Shown here in pieces: positions 1-17,613 of a stretch of DNA of 17,789 bases; position 1 is the stretch's first letter; the number at the start of each line of letters is the position of its first letter. The position numbers were made by a program, and so were the translations under genes. The stretch covers positions 1 to 17,789 of the forward strand of contig JBAXWY010000053.1 of NCBI GenBank assembly GCA_037128175.1. Reading direction: 5' to 3'. The notes under the pieces are model-generated. The model saw nothing but the letters and a program-made list of their open reading frames with translations. It was not told where the DNA came from and searched no databases. This DNA comes from Methanothrix sp. (GTDB lineage: Archaea > Halobacteriota > Methanosarcinia > Methanotrichales > Methanotrichaceae).

Positions 1-57
1 ATACTATATATACTTTTGCATATTAATAATTGGGCAGGTTTATAGGAATCCTCTAGC

Positions 58-750
58 ATTAGAATTATACAGGCGGCTCTTGTAATATTGGTTTTTATAG
101 GCATGATGGGAGTAGTATCCACAGAAGGCGTAAGCTATCCGAAAGATTATTTACGTTTTGAAGGTTATGTTGATTATTATAAGAACACAATAGACATGAT
201 AGGGATTATATCTAACAACTATGACGGTTACATAAGCGCGATAGAAAACGTAATGCAGCAAAATAACAATATTAGAGATTCGGCGGCACATGTTGAAAAT
301 GATGTTCTTTATATCGACATCTTAGCCTACGACAGCGGAAGAGATATGGGTCGAGATTTGACCACATTAGCCTTCGCTGGATTCGTGCAAGCAGTTAAAC
401 AGACGGACGTAAATGCTTTAGTATTTACGCGAGTGGGTGACTACGATAACTCGATCTGCACTTTCCATGCAAACAAAGTATTGGCTCAGGATGCCTTGAT
501 TAATCAAAATAACTCAACCCAAACAGCATTAGATATTGAAAAATTTTCCGACACGTCCCAGTGCAAAGCGCGGGCAACAATGACAACAGGCAATTACATA
601 GGGAATACACAAACAAGAGTGTATCACAATCCGTCATGTTTATGGGCGCAAATGATTCTGCCCGAAAATCTTATTGGGTTCTCTAGTTCTGGAGAAGCCG
701 TTTCAAATGGATATCGGCCATGTGAAAAATGCAATCCACCCACGTCTTAG
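58..750 (+). CDS. Secreted/membrane-anchored protein with C-terminal Ada-like metal (Zn)-binding domain
   Basis: C-terminus YIGNTQTRVYHNPSC...FSSSGEAVSNGYRPCEKCNP (H-x3-C...CxxC) matches the Ada metal-binding type domain. The track start is TTG 88, but the frame is open back to the TAG at 43-45, and ATT at 58 gives a complete signal peptide (M)RIIQAALVILVFIGMMGVVSTEG. Start uncertain. Confidence 0.7.
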   Translation: MRIIQAALVILVFIGMMGVVSTEGVSYPKDYLRFEGYVDYYKNTIDMIGIISNNYDGYISAIENVMQQNNNIRDSAAHVENDVLYIDILAYDSGRDMGRDLTTLAFAGFVQAVKQTDVNALVFTRVGDYDNSICTFHANKVLAQDALINQNNSTQTALDIEKFSDTSQCKARATMTTGNYIGNTQTRVYHNPSCLWAQMILPENLIGFSSSGEAVSNGYRPCEKCNPPTS

Positions 751-1154
751 CCGGCGTAATAGGTGGCTTGACTGCACTGGCCGGAGTGTGGATTGCCCAG
801 AAAAACGAAGCCCGCAAAGCACGAAGAGATGAACGTAAAAAGGCTTATTTAGAGATTATAGATCTCGTAACAAAAGCAGCTAAAACAGGTGATGCAGATT
901 CAGAAGCACTTTCCCACTGTATGATCCAAATGCAGCTACTTGGAAGCAAAAGTATTCTGATAAAAATGGCATCTATAACCCAGGAAATGCTAACAGAAAA
1001 AGATATAGCAAAACGTATGAAGACATTCGGCAAATTCGTTGAAGAGATAGTCCCTCTGATGCGCAAAGATATCCTTTTAGACAAAGATGATTTGCTTTCG
1101 GATAGCCAAAAAGCAGAGGCAAAGCAGTACTTGCAGAAAATTGGGAAGAATTAG
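729..1154 (+). CDS. Hypothetical protein, single N-terminal TM helix followed by a charged helical domain
   Basis: VLAGVIGGLTALAGVWIA followed by basic QKNEARKARRDERKKAY; 141 aa; overlaps the upstream gene by 22 nt; AT-rich. Confidence 0.7.
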   Translation: MQSTHVLAGVIGGLTALAGVWIAQKNEARKARRDERKKAYLEIIDLVTKAAKTGDADSEALSHCMIQMQLLGSKSILIKMASITQEMLTEKDIAKRMKTFGKFVEEIVPLMRKDILLDKDDLLSDSQKAEAKQYLQKIGKN

Positions 1155-1201
1155 CATAGCAAGGCCGAGAATTCTAGAACAGGAAGCTGGATGAAGTGGA
1201 G

Positions 1202-1432
1202 CTATTTTCCTATCCAGAATTCTGCAGGCCACAGCCTATTTTCTTTAGAGCCCGCATCGTCTTTCCCTGCAGCTTCAAAGCGATTCTGTATCATCTCATC
1301 CACCTCCGAGAGCCTAACCCTGAAGACCTCCGCCAGGATCTCCTTGGCCGTCTGGAGCTGCATAGCCTTTGGATTGCAATACACCACCGCCCTCTTTTGT
1401 GGCCTGATTAGCTGCTCAATTACTCCTGCCAT
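1202..1432 (-). CDS. Small hypothetical protein (76 aa)
   Basis: Likely start ATG 1432 (MAGVIEQLIRP...AKEILAEVFRVRLSEVDEMIQNRFE...LWPAEFWIGK). Amphipathic, protein-like composition. The track extension to 1486 lies in AT-rich promoter-like DNA. Confidence 0.6.
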   Translation of the reverse strand: MAGVIEQLIRPQKRAVVYCNPKAMQLQTAKEILAEVFRVRLSEVDEMIQNRFEAAGKDDAGSKENRLWPAEFWIGK

Positions 1433-1634
1433 AGTATGCCTATCATACGTGTAATGATAAGTACTTTCGCAGGAAAACAATATCAATAAACCATTTTTAC
1501 ATAATATAAAGTATGAATAAGATACAAAAGAGAGAATGATATTGAAGCAGGCCCTCGTCTATACTCTCTGAAGTCTCGATTGCCGAAAACATCAAGAAGC
1601 TGAAGGATAAGGGAGAACTTGAATAGGAGTCGCG

Positions 1635-1907
1635 ATGTTTGCGCTACAGCTATCACGCACCGCCCAAAAGGCCTTAGATAAACTTCCGTCTAACGCTACA
1701 GAGAAGATCTTCATCCATCTGGAAGAGATCAAGAGAGACCCTTACCGACCTCGCCCACTTGCGGATATTGTACCTGTCGGAGGTAGTGACACTCATTATA
1801 GGCTGAGAGTCGGAAAGATCCGAGTTGAATATGAAGTGTTAAATTCAGTAAACACTATAAAAATATCTAAAATATTTCAAAAGAAAAGAAAATCGGATTA
1901 CAGATAA
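1635..1907 (+). CDS. relE: Type II toxin-antitoxin toxin, RelE/ParE superfamily
   Basis: 90 aa, basic; N-terminal strand-helix (LQLSRTAQKALDKLP), YRLRVGKIRVEYEV core, C-terminal R-x3-YR; SD AGGAG at 1625-1629. Confidence 0.85.
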   Translation: MFALQLSRTAQKALDKLPSNATEKIFIHLEEIKRDPYRPRPLADIVPVGGSDTHYRLRVGKIRVEYEVLNSVNTIKISKIFQKKRKSDYR

Positions 1908-1939
1908 AGCGATATACTAACGAAGGAGATGATTATCCA

Positions 1940-2113
1940 ATGGCAGCTAGAAGCAAAGTCATAGTAGCGAGTGAGGATCCATTTAACGAGTTTGCAGCCC
2001 TTGATGAAGATGATGAATCAACTGCAGAAGAAATTCATGCACTCATCGAACGCGAAAAAGACGATTTCATCAGCCTTGAAGAATATGCCAAGCGGCGCGG
2101 CATAAGTCTTTGA
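1940..2113 (+). CDS. Putative antitoxin peptide 1 (57 aa, acidic)
   Basis: Hand-translated, not in ORF track: MAARSKVIVASEDPFNEFAALDEDDESTAEEIHALIEREKDDFISLEEYAKRRGISL*. SD AGGAG at 1923-1927; directly follows relE; RelB-type tail FISLEEY..RRGI. Confidence 0.75.
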   Translation: MAARSKVIVASEDPFNEFAALDEDDESTAEEIHALIEREKDDFISLEEYAKRRGISL

Positions 2114-2117
2114 GATC

Positions 2118-2237
2118 ATGCACGCAATAGATATCCTTACCGACGAAGAGTATGCCGATGCTGAATACAGGCGTTTCCTCAGAGAGAAGGACAAGTATGT
2201 AGATTTTGATGAGTTTTGCCGCCAAGAAGGAATTTAG
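2118..2237 (+). CDS. Putative antitoxin peptide 2 (39 aa, acidic), paralogue of the upstream peptide
   Basis: Hand-translated: MHAIDILTDEEYADAEYRRFLREKDKYVDFDEFCRQEGI*. Starts 4 nt after the previous stop and shares the REKD-x-[FY]-[IV]-x-[LF]-[ED]-E-[YF]-x4-GI motif. Confidence 0.6.
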   Translation: MHAIDILTDEEYADAEYRRFLREKDKYVDFDEFCRQEGI

Positions 2238-2482
2238 AAGGCGGATTTACTATTTTCATAAATCAAAGGGATTATTTTTCTGTAATGCCCCAGGATCAAC
2301 GATCTCCTTGGCCGATGGATTACCGGACACGGCAACCGTTCGCTTGAAGGCTGTGGGATAGCTGACTAAAGCAAAGATTCTAGTTGTAGGATAATTGGCC
2401 GGTACGATATAGATAATTTTGCCTATTCGTCCAGAGCCATAGCTCGTTGGCAAAGGGACAATCTGACTTAATTTGCCTCTGG

Positions 2483-2500
2483 AAAAAAGATGCGAAAAAA
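2483..2500 (-). terminator. Oligo-T terminator of the thermosome gene
   Basis: Two T6 tracts on the minus strand (A6 at 2483-2488 and 2495-2500) just past the stop at 2514. Confidence 0.55.
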
Positions 2501-2513
2501 TGGGAGCTAGGAC

Positions 2514-4157
2514 CTACTCGAAGTCCTCGCCGCCCATTCCGCCAGGCATTCCGCCCGCGCCGCCCATTCCGCCCGGTCCGCCGGACTTGGAGGCGATGAC
2601 ATCATCGATTCTCAGAATCATGATGGCGGCCTCGGCTGCCGAGTTGATGGCCTGGGTTTTAACCCTGAGCGGCTCGACAACTCCCAGCTTCAGCATGTCC
2701 ACGGGCTTACCGGTGTCCATGTCCAGACCGGCGCTCTTCATGCCCTTCTCATGCTGGCTTCTTAGTGCAACCAGGGAATCGATCTGGTCTAAGCCGGCAT
2801 TCTCTGCCAGGGTCTTGGGTATGACCTCCATGGCATTGGCAAAGGCCTCGATGGCCAGCTGCTCGCGTCCACCCACTGTGGAAGCATAAGCTCGGAGCCT
2901 CAGAGCCAGCTCTACCTCAGGTGCGCCGCCGCCGGCAACAAGGAGCTTGTCCTGTACAGCCACGCCAACAACGCGAAGTGCGTCCTCCATGGCCCGGTCC
3001 AGCTCATCGACCACGTGTTCAGTTCCGCCCCGCAGAATGATGGATACTGACTTGGGGTTCTTGCAATCTTCCACAAAGGTCATCTTCTCATCAGAGACCT
3101 TCCTCTCCTCTACCAGACCTGCCTTGCCCAGGTCTTCCTTGGAGATCTCGTGGATGCTGGTGACGACCCTGCCGCCTGTGGCACGTGCCAGCTTCTCCAT
3201 GTCACTCTTCTTAATCCTGCGCACGGTGTAGATACCGGCCTTGGCCAGGAAATGCTGGGCCAGATCATCGATGCCCTTCTGGACGAACAGTACATTGGCG
3301 CCAGTGGCAGCGATCCTATCGACCATGCCCTTGAGCATGTTCTCCTCTTGATCCAGAAAAGCCTGCAGCTGATCCGGGGAGGTGATCTGAATCTTGGCAT
3401 CAACCTCTGTCTTCTCGATCTCCACAGCAGCATTCAGGAGAGCGATCCTGGCATCGGCGACGGACTTGGGCATATTGGGGTGAAGCCGGTCCTTGTCGAT
3501 GACCACTCCGCTTACCAGCATGGAGTCGGTGATTCCGCCCCCGACCTTCTTCTCCACGGTGATGTTGTCGGTGTCGACAGTCCCATCCTCGTCCACTACC
3601 GACTGGACAGCTTGAACCGCCATGGCAGCCAGCTCATCGCGAGCCGATTGAGAGCCCTTGCCGGTCATGGCAGTGACGGCGATCTTCCTGAGAAGATCTT
3701 CATCTTTTGCTGAGACCTTTATGGCTAAGCCTTTGAGAATCTCCATTGACTTGTCTGCCGCAGCTCTGTAGCCTGCCGCAATTACAGTAGGATGAATCTC
3801 TTGCTCCAGCAGTTCTTCGGCTTGCTTAAGCAATTCTCCGGCCAGCACAACGGCTGTGGTCGTGCCATCCCCGACTTCCTGGTCCTGGGTCTTGGCAATC
3901 TCCACCATCATCTTGGCGGCGGGATGCTCGATATCCATCTCTTTAAGAATGGTGACGCCATCATTGGTGATCACAACGTCGCCCATGGTGTCTACCAGCA
4001 TTTTGTCCATGCCCTTGGGGCCGAGAGTGGTCCTAACTGCGCCGGCAACGGCCTTGGCTGCCATGATGTTCGATCTCTGTGCGTCTCTTCCAGCAGTCCT
4101 CTGACTGCCTTCCCTAAGAATGTAAATAGGTGTGCCACTACCGAATTGTCCAGCCAT
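2514..4157 (-). CDS. thsA: Thermosome subunit (group II chaperonin)
   Basis: [33 protein letters not shown] and ILRIDDVI motifs; GGM-repeat C-terminal tail; 547 aa. The alpha/beta assignment is tentative. Confidence 0.97.
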
Positions 4158-5503: not shown

Positions 5504-7795
5504 ATGGATGATTTAATGGACGCTGTTGTATGGCTGGAAGAAGTAGGAAAGAATGATCTTTCCGTAGTGGGCGGCAAGGGTGCAAGCCTGGGTGAGATGA
5601 TAAATATCGGCGTTCCCGTACCTGGCGGATTTGCGGTCACGGCTCAAGCTTTCCGGGATTTCATCAACCGGGCGGGCATCGCCAAGAAGCTTTTCGAGGC
5701 CCTCAAAGTCGATGTGAATCAAGAGTCTGAGCTGCACCGGGCCGAGGAGACGGCCAAGAAGCTCATCATGGATGCAAAGGTGCCCGATGACATCGAAAAG
5801 GCCATAAAATCCCGCTATGAGGAGCTATGCAAGCGCGAGGGCGAGCAGGTCTTCGTGGCCGTGCGGTCCAGCGCCACAGCCGAGGATCTGCCCGATGCCA
5901 GTTTCGCAGGCCAGCAGGAGACATTCCTCAACATGCGCGGAGCCGAGGATGTCTTCAACGCCGTTCGCAAGTGCTGGGCATCTCTATATGGGGCACGCGC
6001 CATCTTCTACCGGGTGGAGCAGGGCTTCGAGCATGATAAGGTCAACCTCTCCGCCATTGTGCAAAAAATGGTGGACTCCGAAAAGTCGGGTGTCATGTTC
6101 AGCTCAGATCCCTCCACAGGCGAAGCACTGGTGGTCTTAGAAGGCGCCTGGGGCCTGGGTGAATCCGTAGTTAGCGGCAGCGTCTCTCCCGATAACTTCG
6201 TTGTGGACAGAAAGACCAAGAACATCCTAAGCAAGTACATCGCCACCAAGGAGATCATGATTATCAGGGATCCTAAGACCCAGAAGACGGTCACGATCAA
6301 GGTCCCGGATGAGAAGAAAGAGGCCATCGTTCTCACAGACAACGAGGCAATTGAACTCGCCAAATATGCCGAGATCCTGGAGAAGCACTACGGCATTCCC
6401 CAGGATATCGAGTGGGGCATAGAGAAGGACAAGATCTACATCCTCCAGTCCCGCCCCATCACCACCATCAATAACGCCAGAAAGGTAGAGCCTGCGCTCG
6501 CCGCCAGCGGCAAGGTTCTGTTAACGGGCCTTGGAGCCGCACCGGGTGGAGCCACAGGCATTGTACGACTGATTGCCAGCGGCAGAGAGCTGGATAAGGT
6601 CAAGCCGGGAGACATCATGGTCACCAAGATGACCATGCCGGACATGGTTCCGGGCATGAGGCGTGCCGGAGCTATTGTCACCGACGAAGGAGGCATGGCC
6701 TGCCACGCAGCCATCGTGAGCCGCGAGCTGGGCTGCCCGGCTGTGGTGGGAACTAAGAAAGCCACAACGATCCTGAAAGAAGGCATGGAGATCACAGTAG
6801 ATGGCAGCAAGGGCATTGTTTACGAAGGTCGCTTGGCCCTGGCAGCGTCTGCCAAGCCGGCGTCCGCAGCTAGCGGGGGGGGTGTGGTCTTTACTAAACC
6901 CATTACAGCAACAGAGATCAAGGTCAATGTCAGCGAGCCGGACAGAGCGGAGGCAGCAGCGGCCACAATGGCTGATGGCGTGGGCCTTTTAAGAATCGAG
7001 CACATGATCCTGGGCCAGGGCAAGACACCCAACTGGTACATCAAGAACGGCAAGACCGAGGAGTACATCAACGAGTTGGTCAAGGGCATCAAAGTGGTGG
7101 CCGATGCCTTCTACCCCAAACCGGTGTGGGTTCGCACCCTGGATGCGCCCACAGACGAGTTCCGGGCCATGGAAGGCGGCGAGGGCGAACCTCACGAGCA
7201 CAATCCCATGCTCGGCTGGCGCGGCATTCGGCGCGACCTGACAGAGACGGATCACTTCCGCCTGGAGATAAGGGCTTTTAAGAAGCTGCATGAAATGGGC
7301 CTTACCAACGTGGGCATCATGCTGCCCATGGTACAGCACGTTCGCGAGTTTCAGAAGGCCAAGGCCATCATGGTTGATGAAGACTTAGACCTGGAGAAGA
7401 TCGATGTAGGCATCATGGTGGAGACGCCCGGCGCCGCGCTCACCATTGAAGACTTCATTGAGGACGGAATCGACTTTGTCTCATTCGGCACCAATGATCT
7501 GACTCAGTACACCCTGGCGGTAGACCGCAACAACGAGAACGTGGCAGAACTGTATTCTGAACTGCATCCCGCCATCCTCAAGCTCATCGAGTACGTGGTG
7601 GAGCGCTGTAATGTTGCAGGAGTCAAGACCTCCATCTGCGGCCAGGCCGGATCGTACCCGGAGATGGCCAAGAGGCTGGTTGAGATCGGCATTACCAGCA
7701 TATCGGCCAATATCGATGCCGTGGCCACGGTCCGGGAGACAGTGGCCAGATCTGAGAAGATCCTTATGCTCAATGCCCTGAGAAACAGGAAATAA
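5504..7795 (+). CDS. ppsA: Phosphoenolpyruvate synthase (pyruvate, water dikinase)
   Basis: VGGKGASLGEM, AVRSSATAEDLPDASFAGQQETF, LQSRPIT, phospho-His motif GGMACHAAIVSRELG, EHNPMLGWRG, SFGTNDLTQYTL, SICGQA. The start may be ATG 5516. Confidence 0.97.
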   Translation: MDDLMDAVVWLEEVGKNDLSVVGGKGASLGEMINIGVPVPGGFAVTAQAFRDFINRAGIAKKLFEALKVDVNQESELHRAEETAKKLIMDAKVPDDIEKAIKSRYEELCKREGEQVFVAVRSSATAEDLPDASFAGQQETFLNMRGAEDVFNAVRKCWASLYGARAIFYRVEQGFEHDKVNLSAIVQKMVDSEKSGVMFSSDPSTGEALVVLEGAWGLGESVVSGSVSPDNFVVDRKTKNILSKYIATKEIMIIRDPKTQKTVTIKVPDEKKEAIVLTDNEAIELAKYAEILEKHYGIPQDIEWGIEKDKIYILQSRPITTINNARKVEPALAASGKVLLTGLGAAPGGATGIVRLIASGRELDKVKPGDIMVTKMTMPDMVPGMRRAGAIVTDEGGMACHAAIVSRELGCPAVVGTKKATTILKEGMEITVDGSKGIVYEGRLALAASAKPASAASGGGVVFTKPITATEIKVNVSEPDRAEAAAATMADGVGLLRIEHMILGQGKTPNWYIKNGKTEEYINELVKGIKVVADAFYPKPVWVRTLDAPTDEFRAMEGGEGEPHEHNPMLGWRGIRRDLTETDHFRLEIRAFKKLHEMGLTNVGIMLPMVQHVREFQKAKAIMVDEDLDLEKIDVGIMVETPGAALTIEDFIEDGIDFVSFGTNDLTQYTLAVDRNNENVAELYSELHPAILKLIEYVVERCNVAGVKTSICGQAGSYPEMAKRLVEIGITSISANIDAVATVRETVARSEKILMLNALRNRK

Positions 7796-9026: not shown

Positions 9027-9248
9027 TCAAACTTTATGACCAATGGCAAAACGTCTCATTACCTTATCGATCTGGATCTTGACTGCGTCTCCTACTTTGG
9101 TATCGGCCACGAAGATCACAAAACCTTCCAATCGGGCAATGCCGTCGCCTTCCCTGGCAATGTCCTCAATATTAACATCGTACTCTTTTCCGACCTCTAC
9201 AGGGGCAGGAGTGCCCATGGAGGATCGATCTGCATCGTAATTTGCCAA
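9027..9248 (-). CDS. Single-domain TRAM protein (RNA chaperone / cold-responsive type)
   Basis: [33 protein letters not shown]...VMRRFAIG; TTG start with GGTGA SD at 9255-9259. Confidence 0.93.
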   Translation of the reverse strand: MANYDADRSSMGTPAPVEVGKEYDVNIEDIAREGDGIARLEGFVIFVADTKVGDAVKIQIDKVMRRFAIGHKV

Positions 9249-9450
9249 AACACATCACCGTCCTTAGAAAAGCAATCAAATTTTATGGCCGATGGCGAAG
9301 CGCCTCATTACCTTATCGATCTGGATCTTGACTGCGTCGCCTACTTTGGTATCAGCTACGAAGATCACAAAACCTTCTACTCGGGCAATGCCGTCGCCTT
9401 CCCGGGCAATGTCCTCAATATTGACCTCGTACTCTTTTCCAACTTCTATT
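9027..9450. repeat. Tandem duplication of the TRAM coding core (period 249 bp)
   Basis: 9027-~9200 aligns ungapped to 9276-~9449, including a 35-nt identical block (9055-9089 = 9304-9338). Confidence 0.9.
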
Positions 9451-9503
9451 GGTGCAGTTGGATCGGACCCTCCATTGGAAGATCCTTCCTGGCCTCTGAA
9501 CAA
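9276..9503 (-). CDS. Single-domain TRAM protein, tandem paralogue (75 aa)
   Basis: Same TRAM core. The likely start is TTG at 9503 (MFRGQEGSS...) preceded by a GGTGA SD, not 9620. Confidence 0.92.
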
Positions 9504-9567
9504 ATCTTCACCATCCTTTGCGATAAGCCACAAAATGCTTTTCGCGATCAGCTCCCTCGTTATACGA

Positions 9568-9584
9568 CTATTAAATCCTTTTGC
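9568..9584 (-). promoter_or_regulatory. BRE/TATA promoter for the TRAM pair
   Basis: Minus strand reads CAAAAGGA-TTTAATAG (TATA at 9575-9568), implying a TSS near 9545-9550. Confidence 0.55.
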
Positions 9585-9652
9585 TCCATCATGATAATCC
9601 ATTTGCTCCCCGAAGGCCAATTTATTTCTGCTAGGATGTCGCTCTTCTGTAT

Positions 9653-10549
9653 ATGGACTACCTGGATAGATACAGGGAAATCGTGCCGGATTATGATGCC
9701 TTCCAGGCTATTCAATGCCTGCCACTCTACAACTCCGCACGCATCAATACACTGAAGATAAAGAGGGAAAAGCTCCTGGAAAGGCTGGAAGAAGAGGGCG
9801 TGCTCTTTCAGAGCTTCCCCTGGTATCCTCTGGGCCTGAAGCTGGACATAGAGAGCCCCGGCAAGCTGCTGGAAAACCTCCAGGGGTTCATTCACATCCA
9901 GGAGGAGCTGTCCATGGTCCCACCCCTGGTGCTCGACCCACAGCCCGGTGAAAGCATCCTGGACCTGTGTGCCTCTCCCGGCAGCAAGACCACCCAGATC
10001 TCGCAGATGATGGATAATCGGGGCCTGGTAATCGCCAATGAGCCCTCCTTAGCCCGAGTCTCCCCTCTGCGCTCGAACTGCGAACGACTGGGGGTTATCA
10101 ACGTCGCCATCACCCGCTATGACGGTCGCAATTTTCCCCGTGGCCCCTTCGACAGGGTCCTGGTAGACGCCCCCTGCTCCAGCGAGGGCCGGGAAAGAAG
10201 AGGGCCGGGGGTCTTATCCAGATGCAGCCCTGAAAGATCACTGGATTTGGGGGTACTGCAGATCGGCCTTCTAAAAAACGCCCTGCGCCTGACCAAGCCA
10301 GGTGGGGTCGTGGTATACTCCACCTGTACCTATGCCCCGGAAGAAAACGAGTTGGTGGTGCAGGAGGCACTGGGTGAAGCGGAGGAGTACCGGCTGGAGA
10401 AGGTCTACATTCCCGGCCTTTTGGAATGTCCGGGAATAACAGAGTGGAACGGCAAAAGACTAAACGATGAATTAGCGTGCACCGCCCGCTACTACCCCCA
10501 TATCAACGACACGGGAGGTTTTTATGTCGCCAAGATCATCAAGAATTAG
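9653..10549 (+). CDS. RsmB/RsmF/NOP2/NSUN-family RNA (cytosine-C5) methyltransferase
   Basis: [17 protein letters not shown] (SAM binding), DAPCS (motif IV), [12 protein letters not shown] (motif VI), [10 protein letters not shown]. Confidence 0.95.
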
Positions 10550-11009
10550 GAACATATTCGAGCCGCTGGACCTGTCTATCATAGCGAAGCTGTGGCAAGA
10601 CCGGTTCGGCATTCCTGAAAACGCATTTGAGGGCTGCAAATTTTTCCGGAAAGCTAGAAGCATCTGGGTCATTAGCGATGTCGATCTTCCCCGGCTAAGC
10701 TACGAGACCATTGGAATGCGCATCATGAGCTGCAAAGACCGCCCCTGGAAGCCTACCACCTCTGCACTACAGATCTATGGCCGATATGCCGCCAAAAACC
10801 TTATTCATCTGAACCGGGAAGAGGCCATGATCTTTCTGGAAGGAGGCAGCCAGGTTTTCGAATCGGACTGTGAGCCCGGCTATGTGGTGGTATTTTATAG
10901 AGGGGATGTGCTTGGGTGCGGTCTGTACTCACATGGCAAGCTTGTTTCCCAGATTCCCAAAGAACGAAGAATGGCAAGCACGGTCGAGAGCGAGGCCTGC
11001 CCGGATTGA
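10524..11009 (+). CDS. RsmF C-terminal-like / PUA-NIP7-like RNA-binding partner of the methyltransferase
   Basis: Overlaps the methyltransferase stop; RFGIP, KPTTSALQIYG, GYVVVFYRGDVLGCG and LVSQIPK resemble the RsmF C-terminal domains. Start uncertain. Confidence 0.75.
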   Translation: MSPRSSRIRNIFEPLDLSIIAKLWQDRFGIPENAFEGCKFFRKARSIWVISDVDLPRLSYETIGMRIMSCKDRPWKPTTSALQIYGRYAAKNLIHLNREEAMIFLEGGSQVFESDCEPGYVVVFYRGDVLGCGLYSHGKLVSQIPKERRMASTVESEACPD

Positions 11010-12125: not shown

Positions 12126-12217
12126 TCCGCAGATCTGTACGACTGGTTTTGATTTATTAATCTGACACAAAACTGCGACGATAAGCTTTACATATTTTGA
12201 CGATACATTTCCTGCTG

Positions 12218-13045
12218 GTGGAGATCATTAGAAAAATAATAGTAATCTTGTTAATCGCTTTGCAGGTTTTCGTCATCCCCTGGTCGGTGGCATCGGCCAG
12301 GGATGTTACCGTCTCGGGATCATCAACCGTGATGCCTCTGGCCGAGGTTGCGGCAGAGCAATTCAATGTGCTACAGAAGGACTATGTGGTGACGGTCTCT
12401 GCCGGGGGGACCGGTGCCGGAATTCTGGGCATTGCCGAGCGCAAGAATGACATAGCTATGGCTTCTCGTGAGGTAACCGAGGACGAAAGGCAGAGATTTG
12501 GCGACAATTTTGAGGAGTTCTTGGTCGGGCTGGACGGCATCAGCCTGGCGGTGAGCGATGATGTATACCTGGCGGGAGTGACGGGCCTCTCCCGACAGCA
12601 GGTAAAAGATATCTATTCTGGAAACATCACCAACTGGAAGGAGCTTGGCGGCCCGGATGCAGAAATTTACGTGATATCCCGAGAGGAGGGTTCCGGAACC
12701 CGCGATAGCTTCAATGAGGTAGTCCTGGGCAGCATAGATGCCGAGACGCCGGGCGTTGATACCGTGGCCTTTGGCGGGGCCGAGGTCAAGACGGCCATAT
12801 CGGGAAGCGATAAGGCGATAGGCTATCTGGGTTTCAACTATTTGGGGGGCGACGTTGCAGGTATAGCCTTTAACGGAGTCGCACCGAGCTACGATAACAT
12901 AAAATTGGATCTCTATGAGTTGCACCGGCATCTCTACTTCTACACCTTCGGAAAGCCTACGGACGGTGCACAAGCATTCATAGATTTCGTGCAAGGGCGC
13001 GAGGGCCAGAAGATGGCAGCGGAAGAGGGTTTTATACCAGTTTGA
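12218..13045 (+). CDS. pstS: Phosphate ABC transporter substrate-binding protein (PstS family), copy 1
   Basis: Signal peptide RKIIVILLIALQVFVIPWSVASA; GSSTV, GGTGAG, DIAMASR, ITNWKELGG, REEGSGTR. Start uncertain (TTG 12197, GTG 12218 or ATT 12227). Confidence 0.9.
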   Translation: MEIIRKIIVILLIALQVFVIPWSVASARDVTVSGSSTVMPLAEVAAEQFNVLQKDYVVTVSAGGTGAGILGIAERKNDIAMASREVTEDERQRFGDNFEEFLVGLDGISLAVSDDVYLAGVTGLSRQQVKDIYSGNITNWKELGGPDAEIYVISREEGSGTRDSFNEVVLGSIDAETPGVDTVAFGGAEVKTAISGSDKAIGYLGFNYLGGDVAGIAFNGVAPSYDNIKLDLYELHRHLYFYTFGKPTDGAQAFIDFVQGREGQKMAAEEGFIPV

Positions 13046-13122
13046 TCCTTTTGCCGATTCTAGGACACCTCACGTCCGGTCTGACATCAACCTTACATAA
13101 TAGTATGGCAAATCATATCTTG

Positions 13123-13956
13123 ATGAGAGCCGAAAGCATGCTATTGATATTGTTGCTGTTTTTTATCCTGGCGGGAGCGTCCAGTGAAGCCAGAGAGGTG
13201 ACGGTTGCAGTCTCGGGGTCCAGCACGGTCATGCCCATGGCAGAGCTCGCTGCCGAGGAGTTCAATATGATGCAGGACAACTACACCGTGAACGTAAAAT
13301 CAGGAGGTAGCGGCGTAGGCATCGTGGACGTAGCCGAGGGCAGATCGGATATTGCCATGAGCTCCCGAGAGATTAAACTGGAAGAGCGGCAGAGATATGA
13401 GACGCCAACAGTACGTTTTATCGAGCAGTCGGTGGGATTCGATGCCATATGTCTGGTAGTAAGTTCAGATGTGTATGATTCCGGAGTAACAACACTAACC
13501 AAAGATGAAGTTAAACAGATTTATGCCGGAGACATAACCAACTGGGAAGAGCTGGGCGGGCCGAACACGGAAATATTTGCCATTGGCAGAAGGGCGGGCT
13601 CAGGAACTAGAGACACCTTTAATGAGATCATAATGGGAAGCCGGGAGGCGGAGACTCCTGCGGTATCTTATGATGCCGGGGAGAGTTCTGAGGTCAAATT
13701 CAGTACGCAACGCAGCGACAACGCCATCGGCTATATGGGATACAGCTTCGTCATGACGGGAGACACTAAGGTGATCTCTTTGGACGGCATCCAGCCCTCG
13801 ATTGAGAGCATAAAAAGTGGCGCCTATCCGCTGGCCAGAAAGCTTTTCTTTGTCACTTTGGGTGAGCCCTCGCCCGGTGCCAAAACCTTCATAGATTATA
13901 TCCTGAGCCCTGAAGGTCAGAAGATAGCTGTGGAGAACGGGTTCATACCGATCTAA
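13123..13956 (+). CDS. pstS: Phosphate ABC transporter substrate-binding protein (PstS family), copy 2
   Basis: Hydrophobic N-terminus LLILLLFFILAG; GSSTV, GGSGVG, DIAMSSR, ITNWEELGG, GSGTR, YPLAR. The start is probably ATG 13123 or 13105 rather than 13042. Confidence 0.9.
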   Translation: MRAESMLLILLLFFILAGASSEAREVTVAVSGSSTVMPMAELAAEEFNMMQDNYTVNVKSGGSGVGIVDVAEGRSDIAMSSREIKLEERQRYETPTVRFIEQSVGFDAICLVVSSDVYDSGVTTLTKDEVKQIYAGDITNWEELGGPNTEIFAIGRRAGSGTRDTFNEIIMGSREAETPAVSYDAGESSEVKFSTQRSDNAIGYMGYSFVMTGDTKVISLDGIQPSIESIKSGAYPLARKLFFVTLGEPSPGAKTFIDYILSPEGQKIAVENGFIPI

Positions 13957-14042: not shown

Positions 14043-14522
14043 TCAGCCAGGCCCATCCAGTAGCCGCAGGTAGTACACCACAGCCACCACCAGCGGCACA
14101 AACCCGGCCAGGAGAGCCCAGTAGGCCCGCTTTAGATTGCGGTGCTTGTAGCCCACAAGCTCCCGGTAGAGCTGCTCGGCTAGCTCTGGCGAGCTTAAGT
14201 TCGTCTCGTAGTTCTTCGGCGTGAAAACACGCACGGCAAAGAAGAGGCAGACCAGCCACAGGACGATGGGGCTGACAAAGAGCAGGATGCGAAGATCCGC
14301 CTCTGTACCCTGCACGGCCATGACTTTGCTTAGGTCGCTGAAGGATATGGCTGCGAAATAAATGCCCTCTACCAGGGTCACGGCTGCGATGAGCTGCTTG
14401 GCCGCCTCTTCCAGCGAGGCGACGGACTCACGGACGGCGGTGCGGGCCGTCTCCAGCCAGAACTCATCCAGCTCGGTGACGGGCTCGCCCATGGCGTCCG
14501 GTGCGCCTGCATTTTCTGGCAT
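14043..14522 (-). CDS. 3-TM membrane protein, PycTM-like putative effector
   Basis: Pattern LEEAAKQL-TM1...TM2-FTPK...K-HRNLKRA-TM3; SD GGAGG upstream; GC-rich. The family resemblance is by eye only. Confidence 0.75.
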   Translation of the reverse strand: MPENAGAPDAMGEPVTELDEFWLETARTAVRESVASLEEAAKQLIAAVTLVEGIYFAAISFSDLSKVMAVQGTEADLRILLFVSPIVLWLVCLFFAVRVFTPKNYETNLSSPELAEQLYRELVGYKHRNLKRAYWALLAGFVPLVVAVVYYLRLLDGPG

Positions 14523-14538
14523 GAATTGAAGTTCCTCC

Positions 14539-14751
14539 CTAGATCTCCCTTGTTACGATTTTCTTTAGCAGCTTTGTCACATAGAACTTGTTCCTGGTGC
14601 CACAGGATGGGCATCGCTCCACAAAGGATACGGCACCACCATCCTCCTTCTTGGCCAGCTTGCCGTCCGCCAGCAGATGAGGGCGCTCATCCCACTGAAA
14701 TATCCCGCTCGGGGCTGTGCATTTCTCATTGCAGCATTTGATTTTAAGCAT
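14539..14751 (-). CDS. Small Zn-ribbon protein (70 aa)
   Basis: IKCCNEKC...CPSCGTRN Cys pairs; SD GGGAG; 15- and 16-nt spacers to the flanking genes. Confidence 0.8.
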   Translation of the reverse strand: MLKIKCCNEKCTAPSGIFQWDERPHLLADGKLAKKEDGGAVSFVERCPSCGTRNKFYVTKLLKKIVTREI

Positions 14752-14766
14752 GATCGATCTCCCGTC

Positions 14767-17613
14767 TCACTGGTTTTGCTCTAGTCTTTGCCCGACCTCT
14801 CCGGCAAGTTTTGCATAAGGGCTCCCCAGTTCCTGGAAAGCCGCCTCCGCCAGACGAATCAGGCGCAAGGCTTCCCTCACATTCCCATTTTTCTCTTCTA
14901 GCAACGCAATCTGCGTCTGAGAGTATGCAATGCCGCTTTTATCATCCAGTTTCTGGGAGATTTCCAGGCTTTTTTGGAACAGCCCTCGTGCCTTATCAAT
15001 TTTTTTTTCAAGACAGCCTAGAATGCCCAGCTCGTAAAGTAAAGTCGAAATATCATTCTTGTCGTCCAACTCCTGAGCGATTTCAAGGCTCTGTTGGAAT
15101 AGTCGTCCTGCCTCATTGTAGTCGCAACTAGCTTCGGCCAGGATGCCCAGATCGCCCAGCAGTTTCGAAACACAGCTCTTATCTTCCAGCTCTCTGGCGA
15201 TTTTAAGGCTCTCTTGGAATAGTCGTCCTGCTTCATCGTAGTCTCTACTATCCCTTGCCAGGATGCCCAGCCAGTGCAAAGATTTTGAAACAACTCCGTT
15301 ATCCCTTCGCTCCGTGGCGATTTCCAGGCTATTTTGGAACAGCCGAAGAGCTTCTTCATAATGACTCTTGCGATAAGCCAAAATGCCTTCCTCAAGCCGC
15401 AGTTTTGAAACATTGCTATTATCCCCCAGTTCTTTTGAGATCTCTTCGCTCTGTTTGAACAGCTTCTTTGCTTCAATGTAGTTGCCCTGTTTTGAGGCAA
15501 TAATTCCTAGGTTGTGAATACACCTTGCCTTCTCATTTCTGTTTTCTAGCACTTCAGCAGCATCAATCGCTTGATTTAAGCGCAGTCTGTACTCGTTCCA
15601 GTAACCTCTGGTGTCGAGATAACTGTTCAGAGCGTAGATGTACTGCAAAACCATAAAGGATGCGACCTTGATTGCCTCAGAGGATGATTTCTGCTGCCCT
15701 GCAGCCCAGTCCATTCCGGCCAGAATATTCTCTCGTTCACACTCTAGTATTTTGAAATTATTGCTATGATGTCGGGCATATTCCAGGAAATACTTTGCAG
15801 CTCTGGGTCGAAGCTTGACCAAGAGACCTTCTCCGACCTTTCCGACGGCATACTGTCGCATTAACGGATGCAGAAGATAGCGATAAATCATAACCTCATT
15901 TCCTAACTCATCTTGAGCTATTATCTCAACCCGATCCAGGAATGATCTCCTTTCCAATTCGCCCAGATCGTTCTGCCAGTCTGACCGGCCTTCTTGATCT
16001 TCCTCAATGCAAATGCTACAGATCGCATTTTCCGTCATAGAGCCGTGGAATACCGCTAGGCGGCTAAAGAGCTCTCTCTGCCCTTCCGTCAGGCTTCTGA
16101 ATGAGACATCAAAGCGCTCCGATACCTCCTGGGGAGGATTTCGTCTCAGCTCGTCTCTAATGCTGGATAGGCTTCTGCGAGCCATGAGCGCCGCAATCAG
16201 CTTGATGGCCAGGGGATGGCCCTGCATGAAGCGCACTATCTCGTTCAGGCTCTCCAAATCCACAGGACTCAGATGCTCTCCCCACCTGGGCGAGCGGCGG
16301 CGGGCTTCTGTGATAAGCAGCCGGTCTGCTTCCTCCTGCTCCATCTCTGGCACCCGAATCTCCCGGCCCCCGCAGGGCAGGCTTTCCCTTGTGGTCACCA
16401 GGGCGACGCTGGGCTGGGGGATGCCCTCCAGGAAGCGCCAAAGACTTTGATCCTGTATGCTTTCAGCGTTATCCACTACCAGCAGGCTGGCGGTATCGTA
16501 ATTCCTGAGATAGCCTAAAACCTGGTCTCGCTTCGCATCGAGGGGAAGCGTGCGGAGCTGTGGTCCAAAGACGTTATCAAAAGCGTTAAGCATCTCCTCC
16601 AGGCCCAGGCGCTCCATTTCGGCAGCGCTCCTCCAGAAGATGCCTCCAGGATATCGCCAGGCCAGTCGTCGGGCCGCCTCGGCGGCGAGCACTGTCTTGC
16701 CGATGCCTCCCTGGCCGGTGAGGACGACCAGCTTCTCGCCAGATTGCAACGCGTCCATGGTTTGAGAGAGGAGCCCCTTGCGCCCCCGCGGCGGATCGCC
16801 CCGCATGCAGTCGCCCACGAACTCGTGCTCGGGTAGGCCAAAGAGGCGCTCGGCCTCGAAGCTGGCCCTCCCGGTGACTTTGGTCGATAGAATCCTGGCA
16901 TCCTTTCCCGGCCCCTCCAGCACAGGGATCTGTTCGCTGCCGTTCTCCAACCGCTTCAGAGCCGGCAGGGCATTCTCGAAGGCCTTTTCGATAGTCTTGC
17001 CCGATCCCAGGCCGGCGTAAAAGGGCTCGGCCAGCGCCATGGTCGCCTTTAATGGGACGGACTCATTCATCCCCAGGACGGCAGGAACGCCCTTGGCCAG
17101 CAGTACATTCTGGAGACTGGTTTCGCCTCCTTTGGCCGACTCGCAGGCGCTCAGGAAAACAAGCTTCACAGGCTGCGGCGCACTCATGACGATCTCCGCC
17201 AGCTCCTCCGCAGCCAGGGCGTCCCGTTTGCCATCCTCCTTCTCGAAGGCGAAGTAGCCCTTCGCCACCTCGTCCTCCAGCAGAGCCGTGCAACGATCGC
17301 ATTTCTTTTCCTGTGGCGAGTGGAGAGCACCGCAGTTGGGGCAGCGACGCCCCAGGGCTCCGTGGCCGTCGAAATGGACGATGTCGTAGCCGTTCAAGAT
17401 CTCGCTGCGCAGGCCCTCGACCGTGGGCGGGCGGAGCATCTTCAGGAAGGCAGGGGCCTGTACCCGTCTCAGGCCATTCTGCAAGGCCCACTGGTCGGCC
17501 AGGTTGGGCAAATCGGGCAGGTCCAGGGGCCGGGAGACAATCACCAGAACGCGAAAGCCCTGGGAGGAGGAAGCATCTTGCGGCATATCAGGGCTGAGTA
17601 CGGCTACTATCAC
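14767..17613 (-). CDS. CHAT (caspase-like) protease - STAND/NB-ARC-type NTPase - TPR protein (NLR-like)
   Basis: CHAT catalytic dyad IVHFDGHG (His84) and VFLSACES (Cys157), GVPAVLGM; Walker A GQGGIGKT, Walker B LLVVDNAE, VTTR sensor, GHPLAI, LHPL; six 40-aa TPRs. The start may be ATG 17586. Confidence 0.92.
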   Translation of the reverse strand: MIVAVLSPDMPQDASSSQGFRVLVIVSRPLDLPDLPNLADQWALQNGLRRVQAPAFLKMLRPPTVEGLRSEILNGYDIVHFDGHGALGRRCPNCGALHSPQEKKCDRCTALLEDEVAKGYFAFEKEDGKRDALAAEELAEIVMSAPQPVKLVFLSACESAKGGETSLQNVLLAKGVPAVLGMNESVPLKATMALAEPFYAGLGSGKTIEKAFENALPALKRLENGSEQIPVLEGPGKDARILSTKVTGRASFEAERLFGLPEHEFVGDCMRGDPPRGRKGLLSQTMDALQSGEKLVVLTGQGGIGKTVLAAEAARRLAWRYPGGIFWRSAAEMERLGLEEMLNAFDNVFGPQLRTLPLDAKRDQVLGYLRNYDTASLLVVDNAESIQDQSLWRFLEGIPQPSVALVTTRESLPCGGREIRVPEMEQEEADRLLITEARRRSPRWGEHLSPVDLESLNEIVRFMQGHPLAIKLIAALMARRSLSSIRDELRRNPPQEVSERFDVSFRSLTEGQRELFSRLAVFHGSMTENAICSICIEEDQEGRSDWQNDLGELERRSFLDRVEIIAQDELGNEVMIYRYLLHPLMRQYAVGKVGEGLLVKLRPRAAKYFLEYARHHSNNFKILECERENILAGMDWAAGQQKSSSEAIKVASFMVLQYIYALNSYLDTRGYWNEYRLRLNQAIDAAEVLENRNEKARCIHNLGIIASKQGNYIEAKKLFKQSEEISKELGDNSNVSKLRLEEGILAYRKSHYEEALRLFQNSLEIATERRDNGVVSKSLHWLGILARDSRDYDEAGRLFQESLKIARELEDKSCVSKLLGDLGILAEASCDYNEAGRLFQQSLEIAQELDDKNDISTLLYELGILGCLEKKIDKARGLFQKSLEISQKLDDKSGIAYSQTQIALLEEKNGNVREALRLIRLAEAAFQELGSPYAKLAGEVGQRLEQNQ
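14941..15540 (-). repeat. 120-bp coding tandem repeats (40-aa TPR units)
   Basis: Exact 120-nt periodicity, e.g. TTGGAATAGTCGTCCTGC at 15094 and 15214 and GCCAGGATGCCCAG at 15137 and 15257. Confidence 0.9.

Follow-up and report, generated by a model that had tools for sequence, protein, structure and literature searches.

A three-gene cassette of Methanothrix encoding a CHAT-NB-ARC-TPR protein, a zinc-ribbon protein and a distantly PycTM-like membrane protein: a candidate sensor-protease and latent executioner module

The window analysed here (17,789 nucleotides, nt) is the entire contig C53 of a Methanothrix sp. genome (2.96 Mb in 98 contigs), and it carries three genes on the minus strand, separated by gaps of 15 and 16 nt, for which the best reading is a single module made up of a sensor-protease and a latent executioner. 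The large gene (14767..17613, minus strand) encodes, from a GTG start, a 948-amino-acid (aa) protein in which the open reading frame (ORF) call and Pfam matches identified a CHAT domain, an NB-ARC nucleoside triphosphatase (NTPase) and an array of tetratricopeptide repeats (TPRs). Downstream of it lie the gene of a 70-aa zinc-ribbon protein with four cysteines (14539..14751, minus strand; assigned to type A, as described below, from the ORF, an alignment and an AlphaFold2 (AF2) model) and the gene of a 159-aa, all-helical protein with three transmembrane (TM) segments and an acidic N-terminus (14043..14522, minus strand; from the ORF, profiles and AF2), which is a candidate for a distant PycTM-like effector. 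When the sequence was read for Shine-Dalgarno (SD)-like motifs, GGGAG was found 7 nt before the ATG of the zinc-ribbon gene (14759..14763, minus strand) and GGAGG 11 nt before the ATG of the TM-protein gene (14534..14538, minus strand). No SD precedes the GTG of the large gene or an alternative ATG nine codons into the same ORF, the use of which would shift the residue numbering by 9. An earlier, sequence-only reading of this DNA had described the co-orientation of the three genes, the two short gaps, the SD motifs and the convergence with pstS genes, and every detail that was checked proved correct.

The large protein has the tripartite layout of STAND proteins, with the CHAT domain at residues 57-219, the NB-ARC at residues 290-482 and the TPRs at about residues 687-930. 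The CHAT domain (clan CD, caspase-like; PF12770; 16957..17448, minus strand) was matched with an E value of 4.1e-20 and 72.8 bits, against a gathering cut-off of 24, and its catalytic dyad consists of H84 in VHFDGHG and C157 in LSACES (these residue numbers, and those of K306 and D381 below, are counted from the GTG). Just past the catalytic His, the domain holds a CxxC...CxxC insert (aa 89-108), at which weak matches to Zn_ribbon_3 and DZR were obtained. The NTPase core (16168..16746, minus strand) matched NB-ARC at 31.3 bits (cut-off 23.5) and contains the Walker A motif GQGGIGKT, with K306, and the Walker B motif LLVVDN, with D381; the closest solved structures to this part of the protein are those of AfsR, Roq1, Apaf-1 and Sr35. 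The TPR array, which is the presumed sensor (14824..15555, minus strand), was matched by TPR_12 (E 2e-31), TPR_10, TPR_2 and other models. In the 28 full-length relatives compared, the His, the Walker A Lys and the Walker B Asp were each kept in 28 and the Cys in 27, the sole exception (locus L059) having Tyr instead. The dyad and the Walker residues that had been predicted from the letters are in place at the predicted positions, and the TPR region is present as well.

The 70-aa protein shows the pattern C-x4-C ... C-x2-C, together with an FxW(D/N)E motif and a central loop rich in Gly and Pro. An alignment restricted to 36 type-A sequences showed that C6, N8, C11, F18, W20, C47 and C50 are invariant, and this conservation applies to type A; the zinc ribbons of types A, B and C may be homologous or merely analogous. 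The AF2 model is a four-stranded beta ribbon (predicted local distance difference test, pLDDT, 80), for which a Foldseek search of the PDB gave nothing at E ≤ 1e-3, and no Pfam, NCBIfam or PADLOC family was matched by the protein at threshold. A word-index search returned 35 close relatives, 63-94% identical, all of them hypothetical or nameless. A complex prediction that paired the TM protein (108-row alignment) with the zinc-ribbon protein (36-row alignment) scored 0.29 against a mark of 0.32 and is not used as evidence.

The hydrophobic segments of the 159-aa protein lie at residues 44-62, 79-97 and 137-155, leaving a C-terminal tail of six residues, and a basic cluster precedes the third segment, which suggests that the N-terminus is inside and the C-terminus outside the cell. 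As the sequence-only reading had noted, the N-terminus is acidic, with 10 acidic and 2 basic residues among the first 40. The AF2 model (pLDDT 93.5) consists of long helices at residues 17-61, 73-98 and 112-156, and the conserved residues W22, EEAAKQ and K126 lie on cytoplasmic helices. When this model was compared with the PDB by Foldseek, nothing was found at E ≤ 1e-3. A profile of the protein recovered 650 clusters (50% identity) with a cut-off of E ≤ 1e-3, and 285 when the cut-off was tightened to E ≤ 1e-10; almost all of these are about 150 aa long. A lead to the possible nature of the family came from a protein atlas, in which a cluster carries the automatic name 'Pycsar effector protein domain-containing protein', and two PADLOC models of PycTM matched the window's TM protein at E 2e-4 and 4.6e-4. 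The Pfam model of PycTM (PF18967) was the only family matched by more than one of 108 relatives of the TM protein (4 members at E ≤ 0.01, the best at 3e-4). The 108 relatives were also aligned by hhalign with 19 PycTM proteins, a reference set formed by proteins adjoining a gene that was read (not scanned) as a Pycsar cyclase in two archaeal genomes (L067 and L068), plus their relatives; the alignment covered 114 columns and all three TM segments, with a probability of 70.8% and E 3.8e-5. Its score of 35.1 compares with 16.2 for the reversed alignment, 16.1 for the best of 40 column shuffles and 27.3 for the best of 40 block shuffles. Overall, these comparisons are moderate evidence that the TM protein is a distant homologue of the membrane-disrupting effector PycTM rather than a member of its family, so that the earlier designation of this protein as a membrane effector is matched by a likeness, at the level of profiles, to a known one.

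In order to define the conservation of the cassette, one genome per species was scanned with the TM-protein profile, ORFs were called in all of the 55 loci obtained, and the window's CHAT, NTPase and TPR segments were mapped onto these ORFs with phmmer. Upstream sequence of 3 kb or more was available for 39 loci, and in 33 of these CHAT, NTPase and TPR segments were found on the same strand and directly upstream of the TM gene, some of the large genes being split by frameshifts. The exceptions were a 128-aa CHAT remnant upstream of the TM gene (L057), a gene for an AAA_16-CHAT protein in divergent orientation (L060), a Peptidase_C11 gene (clostripain, clan CD; 1698-3445, plus strand) whose stop overlaps the TM start in an Anaerolineae metagenome-assembled genome (L066), an IS200 transposase gene upstream (L035), SpoIIE and CCA-adding enzyme genes upstream (L033), and a TM fragment alone, adjoining a type IIG restriction-modification gene (L065). 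In the 16 loci with less than 3 kb upstream, the TPR ORF runs off the contig end in 8, and one locus with 2.8 kb upstream (L016) has a complete large gene. A zinc-ribbon ORF with two Cys pairs was found just before the TM gene in 47 of the 54 loci with at least 250 nt upstream; by our reading, 30 of these ORFs are of type A, 13 are of type B (MxLExVKCPHCGYKFR...), 3 have a long helical insert and 1 is divergent. As the sequence-only reading had anticipated, CHAT genes accompany the homologues of each of the two small genes. At L066, a beta-propeller (Reg_prop) gene precedes the Peptidase_C11 gene, no zinc-ribbon ORF lies between the protease and TM genes, and the contig ends inside the TM gene. 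The Peptidase_C11 gene of this locus is a second clan-CD protease family tied to the same membrane protein family.

While the order in types A and B is CHAT-STAND-TPR, zinc ribbon and TM protein, a third arrangement, type C, was found by crossing the family-wide TM and CHAT scans and was then checked on the DNA of the loci. In type C, a zinc-ribbon gene (56-74 aa) is followed by a TM gene (194-224 aa) and then by the gene of a large protein in which TPRs precede a CHAT domain at the C-terminus (E about 1e-57 to 1e-60). The type-C TM proteins have an extension of 50-80 aa beyond the last TM helix, which is predicted to be extracellular, and no NTPase was detected in the type-C large proteins. 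This arrangement is complete in three loci (L072, L074 and L075), and in a fourth (L073) the TM and CHAT genes are present and no zinc-ribbon ORF was seen. The type-C protein of L072 (2073-6734, plus strand; 1553 aa) combines a long TPR region, including TPR-S (PF20308, E 6.6e-11), with its C-terminal CHAT domain. TPR-S is a predicted sensor of NAD-derived signals, and the match hints at a small-molecule input for the type-C branch.

These data indicate that the constant unit consists of the zinc-ribbon protein, the three-TM protein and a clan-CD protease with a repeat or NTPase sensor, with variation in gene order and protease architecture. The triad proposed earlier, in which the protease was of CHAT-STAND type, is therefore a recurrent unit of which the STAND module is not an obligatory part, because TPR-CHAT, AAA-CHAT and Peptidase_C11 proteins occur as partners. 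What speaks most strongly for a direct functional link of the small proteins with the protease is that the unit persists across these gene orders and protease architectures. The same data refute the explanation that the genes are neighbours by chance or that the small ORFs are not genes at all. Nothing beyond the small size of the ORFs speaks for it, whereas the linkage recurs in 33 of 39 loci for the TM gene and in 47 of 54 for the zinc-ribbon ORF, the four Cys are invariant in 36 sequences, the TM family comprises 650 clusters and the linkage is kept when the gene order is reversed, which leaves chance a negligible probability.

The cassette was presented in the sequence-only reading as an archaeal system, and the distribution did not bear out that limit: the record titles of 19 of the 55 loci name bacteria (Chloroflexota, Acidobacteriota, Clostridia, Nitrospirae and Omnitrophota), and the system is therefore not archaea-specific. 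Among the bacterial loci are a 4.4-Mb Anaerolineales chromosome and an acidobacterial contig of 2.2 Mb; at least one title, that of a 'Desulforapulum' contig with 80% identity to the window's protein, probably reflects a binning error. The remaining loci belong to Methanotrichaceae, Methanosarcinaceae, anaerobic methanotrophic archaea (ANME) and Methanoperedens. Within the window's own taxonomic family, the TM family was found in 49 of 105 genomes (33 of 64 of high quality, and 32 of 58 in the genus), often in two or three copies per genome, with many fragments. In five TM matches of one genus, an in-frame TAG was seen, which is the terminal stop included in the match (checked on one, G218). 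Such a patchy and decaying distribution is typical of accessory, costly genes.

The genome from which the window was taken contains three TM matches and three CHAT matches. Contig C74 (6.2 kb, locus L009) carries a type-B triad, made up of a 1095-aa CHAT-NACHT/NB-ARC-TPR protein, a 66-aa zinc-ribbon protein and a 146-aa TM protein that is 41% identical to the window's, and the genes overlap by 4 nt. This triad lies directly downstream of an intein-containing gene for a terminase large subunit (38-1765, plus strand; Intein_splicing E 1.5e-11), which in tblastn matched phage terminases (identity of up to 33%, query coverage of 90%); as the contig is only 6.2 kb long, a provirus cannot be delimited. 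On contig C1 (48000-60000, locus L010), at about 6140-6320 on the minus strand, the N-terminus of a CHAT gene is in frame with the last approximately 55 residues of a TM gene. This remnant looks as if a complete cassette had lost its interior by deletion, and the CHAT-TM fusion marks both ends of the unit. Contig C18 (L011) has a third CHAT-STAND-TPR gene, with the same zinc-binding-type Cys insert and without the small genes. A 403-aa ORF adjoins the remnant on C1, and an ORF of equal length lies downstream of the CHAT-STAND-TPR gene on C18 (L011, 10656-11867).

Two relatives of the TM protein were found among the viral contigs of IMG/VR. In one (L070), a type-B triad lies beside terminase and portal genes. 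In the other (L071), which is of the head-tail type, a type-A-like zinc-ribbon gene and a divergent TM gene (5555-6414, plus strand) are surrounded by genes for terminase, portal, major head and adaptor proteins, with head-morphogenesis genes on one side and ORFs of unassigned function on the other, and the contig has no CHAT gene. This pair may serve as a decoy aimed at the host system, or as a module for lysis or exclusion. The second possibility, when extended to the whole family, becomes an explanation in which the zinc-ribbon and TM proteins are a virus-derived pair of the holin/antiholin kind, or a superinfection-exclusion pair, and the CHAT-NLR protein (NLR, nucleotide-binding leucine-rich repeat) is a later regulator of lysis timing or of competitors. 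Besides the viral pair without CHAT and the type-B triads next to terminase genes in C74 and L070, a report of a CARD-NLR-like system that controls the lysis-dependent release of a gene transfer agent is in line with it (PMC13236601). In contrast, the IMG/VR scan gave only these 2 relatives and the 50,697 GenBank phage records none, most loci are found among chromosomal housekeeping genes, and a decoy directed at the very system under discussion would account for the viral pair just as well. We consider this explanation quite unlikely.

The immediate surroundings of the cassette are of the housekeeping type as well. Two genes for PstS-like proteins of the PBP_like_2 family (12197-13045 and 13042-13956, plus strand; Pfam) are convergent to it, and the remaining long ORFs scanned in the window encode a thermosome subunit, MoeA, a phosphoenolpyruvate synthase-like protein, a pyridoxal phosphate-dependent decarboxylase, an RsmB-like methyltransferase and a CofH-like radical S-adenosylmethionine protein, while a 239-aa ORF (9036-9755) had no family match. 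Overlapping ORFs in different frames (9653-10549 and 10524-11009, plus strand) separately encode the RsmB/F-like methyltransferase and the PUA-like domain that forms its C-terminus; the cause may be a frameshift, an error of sequencing or a gene that is truly split. In positions 1-2500 of the window, the G+C content is 0.40-0.43, compared with about 0.55 elsewhere, and only short ORFs are found (88-750, 729-1154 and 1635-1907); this region had no Rfam match, and a repeat scan of positions 1-2600 gave no array-like repeats.

A wider scan took in the two closest ORFs to either side of the related loci, 143 in all. Matches of the defence type were isolated (one type IIG restriction-modification enzyme, IetA, TRIP13 and PDC-S09, and 4 PIN), and 2 matches to QatD coincided with TatD DNase. 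The defence-island argument for the cassette is accordingly weak, its neighbours being mostly housekeeping genes. This weak context is one of the points that would suit a developmental or kin-directed role, in which the same proteolysis would serve death or regulation in filamentous or aggregating prokaryotes, with HetF-like CHAT signalling and a physiological trigger. Most of the record titles name Methanotrichaceae, Methanosarcinaceae, ANME, Anaerolineae/Chloroflexota or Acidobacteriota, and an enrichment of NLR-like and caspase-linked conflict systems has been described for multicellular prokaryotes (PMC7159879; Dyrka preprint). However, the patchiness, the decay, the paralogous copies and the viral-gene neighbours fit conflict better, and we regard a developmental role as very unlikely.

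We propose that the TPR array would sense a trigger, most plausibly a viral protein, and that the NB-ARC NTPase would then drive oligomerisation, by which the N-terminal CHAT domains would be brought together and activated. The activated protease would act on the downstream gene products, the likeliest target being the zinc-ribbon protein, as a brake or an adaptor, and an alternative target being the acidic cytoplasmic N-terminus of the TM protein. Once freed, the PycTM-like three-helix protein would oligomerise and breach or depolarise the membrane, resulting in cell death or arrest. In our judgement, it is somewhat more likely than not that a PycTM-like membrane effector is set free when the protease is activated, the zinc ribbon being the likely lock or adaptor. 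The broader claim, that the pair represents a new and widespread class of executioner in which a PycTM-type pore former was rewired from cyclic-nucleotide control to control by CHAT or C11 proteases, with the zinc ribbon as a cleavable lock, is put forward tentatively and is open to considerable doubt. The interpretation first drawn from the DNA sequence is supported in part, by the conservation of the unit and of the residues and by the PycTM likeness found here, and it was too narrow in its archaeal limit and in the obligatory STAND module.

The small proteins could also stand upstream of the protease rather than downstream of it, as a sensor that reports disturbance of the membrane or envelope, or as an anchor that tethers the complex to the membrane, and would then switch on the CHAT protease against other cellular or viral proteins. 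A sensor role of this kind was the original prediction for EACC1, which is likewise a small membrane protein that pairs with caspases (PMC7159879), and a CHAT/TPR transmembrane anti-sigma factor that regulates defence genes is known (PMC11506125). The location of W22, EEAAKQ and K126 on cytoplasmic helices of the TM protein and the predicted position of the type-C extension outside the cell would also suit a sensor. Nevertheless, the large protein already has a TPR sensor of its own, the PycTM likeness points to an effector, and EACC1 itself was proved by experiment to be a pore-forming effector (PMC12642450), which makes a sensor or anchor function of the pair unlikely in our view.

Several observations weigh against the release of a PycTM-like effector by the protease. 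With regard to the TM protein, the Pfam PycTM model reached only 9.6 bits on the window's sequence, against a gathering score of 27.2, the hhalign probability of the likeness is moderate, and both small proteins stay below the thresholds of all curated families. The unit is also not without exceptions, as some TM genes lack a zinc-ribbon ORF (L032, L043, L048, L059 and L066), zinc-ribbon and TM pairs occur without a nearby protease gene in L033, L035 and the viral contig L071, and CHAT genes, of which the taxonomic family has more than 150 matches spread over 68 of its 105 genomes, mostly have no adjoining TM gene; the pair therefore accompanies particular CHAT lineages only. As for a role in defence, a tblastn search with the TM protein against the 50,697 GenBank phage records and the PLSDB plasmids gave no match. 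The flanking ORFs are mostly housekeeping genes, among them PBP_like_2 (5), an ammonium transporter (4), CbiK (4) and SecDF, so that no clear defence island can be recognised from the 143 ORFs, a count that has no background control. Finally, the trigger, the cleavage and its substrate, the membrane damage and the antiviral or cell-death role are what we infer, and cleavage, binding, toxicity and defence are predictions for every member of the family.

When the cassette is compared with described systems, the closest designs are those in which a protease releases an effector. Ten protease-effector modules have been listed: MBL (metallo-beta-lactamase), alpha/beta hydrolase, Pepco, EACC1, PCaspase, bGSDM, CATASP, MPE, CalpT and Csx30 (Evans et al. 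2025, PMC12642450). Experiments have shown that EACC1 and Pepco form pores once they have been cleaved at one point by a caspase-like or serine protease, which is itself fused to an Avs sensor (PMC12642450). Like the cassette, they place the gene of a small non-enzymatic protein beside a caspase-superfamily protease with a STAND (Avs) or other sensor, and the type-C loci share their order, in which the small gene or genes precede the protease; in their case the small protein stays latent until one cleavage sets it free to form pores, and the distribution is biased to multicellular prokaryotes. EACC1, however, is a protein of about 13 kDa with one TM helix and alpha+beta extensions (Kaur et al. 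2020, PMC7159879) and Pepco is a 117-aa former of beta-barrels, whereas the cassette has three TM helices of the PycTM-like kind and a zinc ribbon in addition. Neither of its small proteins matched any Pfam family at E ≤ 0.1. Pfam presumably includes models of EACC1 or Pepco. Identity with EACC1, a single-TM protein (PMC7159879), was rejected on account of the three hydrophobic segments, the all-helical model and the lack of a Pfam match.

Gasdermins together with CHAT-NLR proteins are known in fungi and have been reported for bacteria and archaea, the gasdermin being a pore former activated by cleavage (PMC12881547). The arrangement is similar, as a CHAT or other protease, often of TPR, WD40 or NLR architecture, lies beside the executioner, but gasdermins are soluble, beta-rich proteins with an inhibitory tail, whereas the protein described here is an alpha-helical integral membrane protein with a zinc ribbon as third component. 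A gasdermin was rejected, since neither small protein had a family match and the models are three helices and a four-strand ribbon. In Pycsar, PycTM disrupts membrane integrity (PMC11224242), and the TM protein shares with it the topology and an ordered set of motifs. PycTM differs in that its cytoplasmic loop holds about 28 inserted residues, which the window's TM family lacks, and control in the cassette would be proteolytic or by protein-protein contact rather than by the cyclic nucleotides cCMP or cUMP (cyclic cytidine and uridine monophosphate). Membership in Pycsar was rejected, as the gathering score of PF18967 was not reached and no cyclase family was found in the 10 other long ORFs or in the cassette proteins. 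A study in which Pycsar was combined with a caspase-containing Thoeris operon found no cross-activation and deals with a different system (PMC13069673).

In the type III-E Craspase, the sensor-activated TPR-CHAT protease Csx29 cleaves Csx30, the product of a neighbouring small gene, and the type-C proteins likewise run from TPR to CHAT without an NTPase; the partners in the cassette, however, are a membrane protein and a zinc ribbon rather than a sigma-factor regulator. Craspase and a substrate of the Csx30 type were rejected, since no Cas family was found in the 10 other long ORFs, there was no Rfam match, and the repeat scan of positions 1-2600 gave no array-like repeats. Pairs of Bell/BASS proteins and NLRs, which share an amyloid motif between the C-terminus of the effector and the N-terminus of the NLR and have a five-helix Bell domain, occur in Methanosarcinales (Dyrka preprint) and are unlike the cassette in both fold and coupling; these were rejected because the N-terminus of the NLR is here a CHAT domain and the TM protein has three helices and its six-residue C-terminal tail. 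Avs1-5 were rejected as well, as no Avs model of PADLOC-DB 2.0.0 matched at E ≤ 0.1; only generic TPR, mad8, SAVED_CHAT (E 8.4e-4) and TRIP13 models were hit.

The earlier statement that no named system has this triad held for PADLOC-DB 2.0.0, which names none for it, and for the literature compared, in which no description of a CHAT or caspase protease with a PycTM-like protein and a zinc ribbon was found; the CATRA/CATASP account and the lists of the STAND census lie outside this comparison. The main text of that 2026 census (PMC13581612; at least 90 defence families) mentions neither CHAT nor Methano- names. That the system is undescribed is not fully established, the main risk being CATRA/CATASP (Burroughs and Aravind 2020, J Bacteriol), a caspase-dependent ternary conflict system with a small protein according to PMC8195603 and PMC12642450.

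The logic of sensor, protease and executioner, as in NLRs, caspases and gasdermins, is now seen as ancient. To our knowledge, the prokaryotic executioners that have been worked out are a handful, namely gasdermin, EACC1, Pepco, the MBL nuclease and the alpha/beta hydrolase. If the proposed mechanism is true, an integral-membrane, PycTM-like executioner with a dedicated zinc-ribbon partner would be added to them, and one effector fold would be driven either by cyclic pyrimidines or by proteolysis. Archaea would then own a complete death pathway from an NLR through a caspase-like protease to a membrane pore, which viruses would carry and may counterfeit by encoding the zinc-ribbon and TM pair alone. 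Methanothrix is a key acetoclastic methanogen of digesters and wetlands, about whose virus defence and programmed death we know of almost nothing, and the cassette offers a tractable archaeal case of this logic. As the TM family is large (the 650 clusters) and wholly unannotated, one experiment would give a name to many genes. Set beside the systems considered above, the cassette is best read as a new effector pair within the known design of protease-gated membrane effectors, of the kind represented by gasdermin, EACC1 and Pepco.

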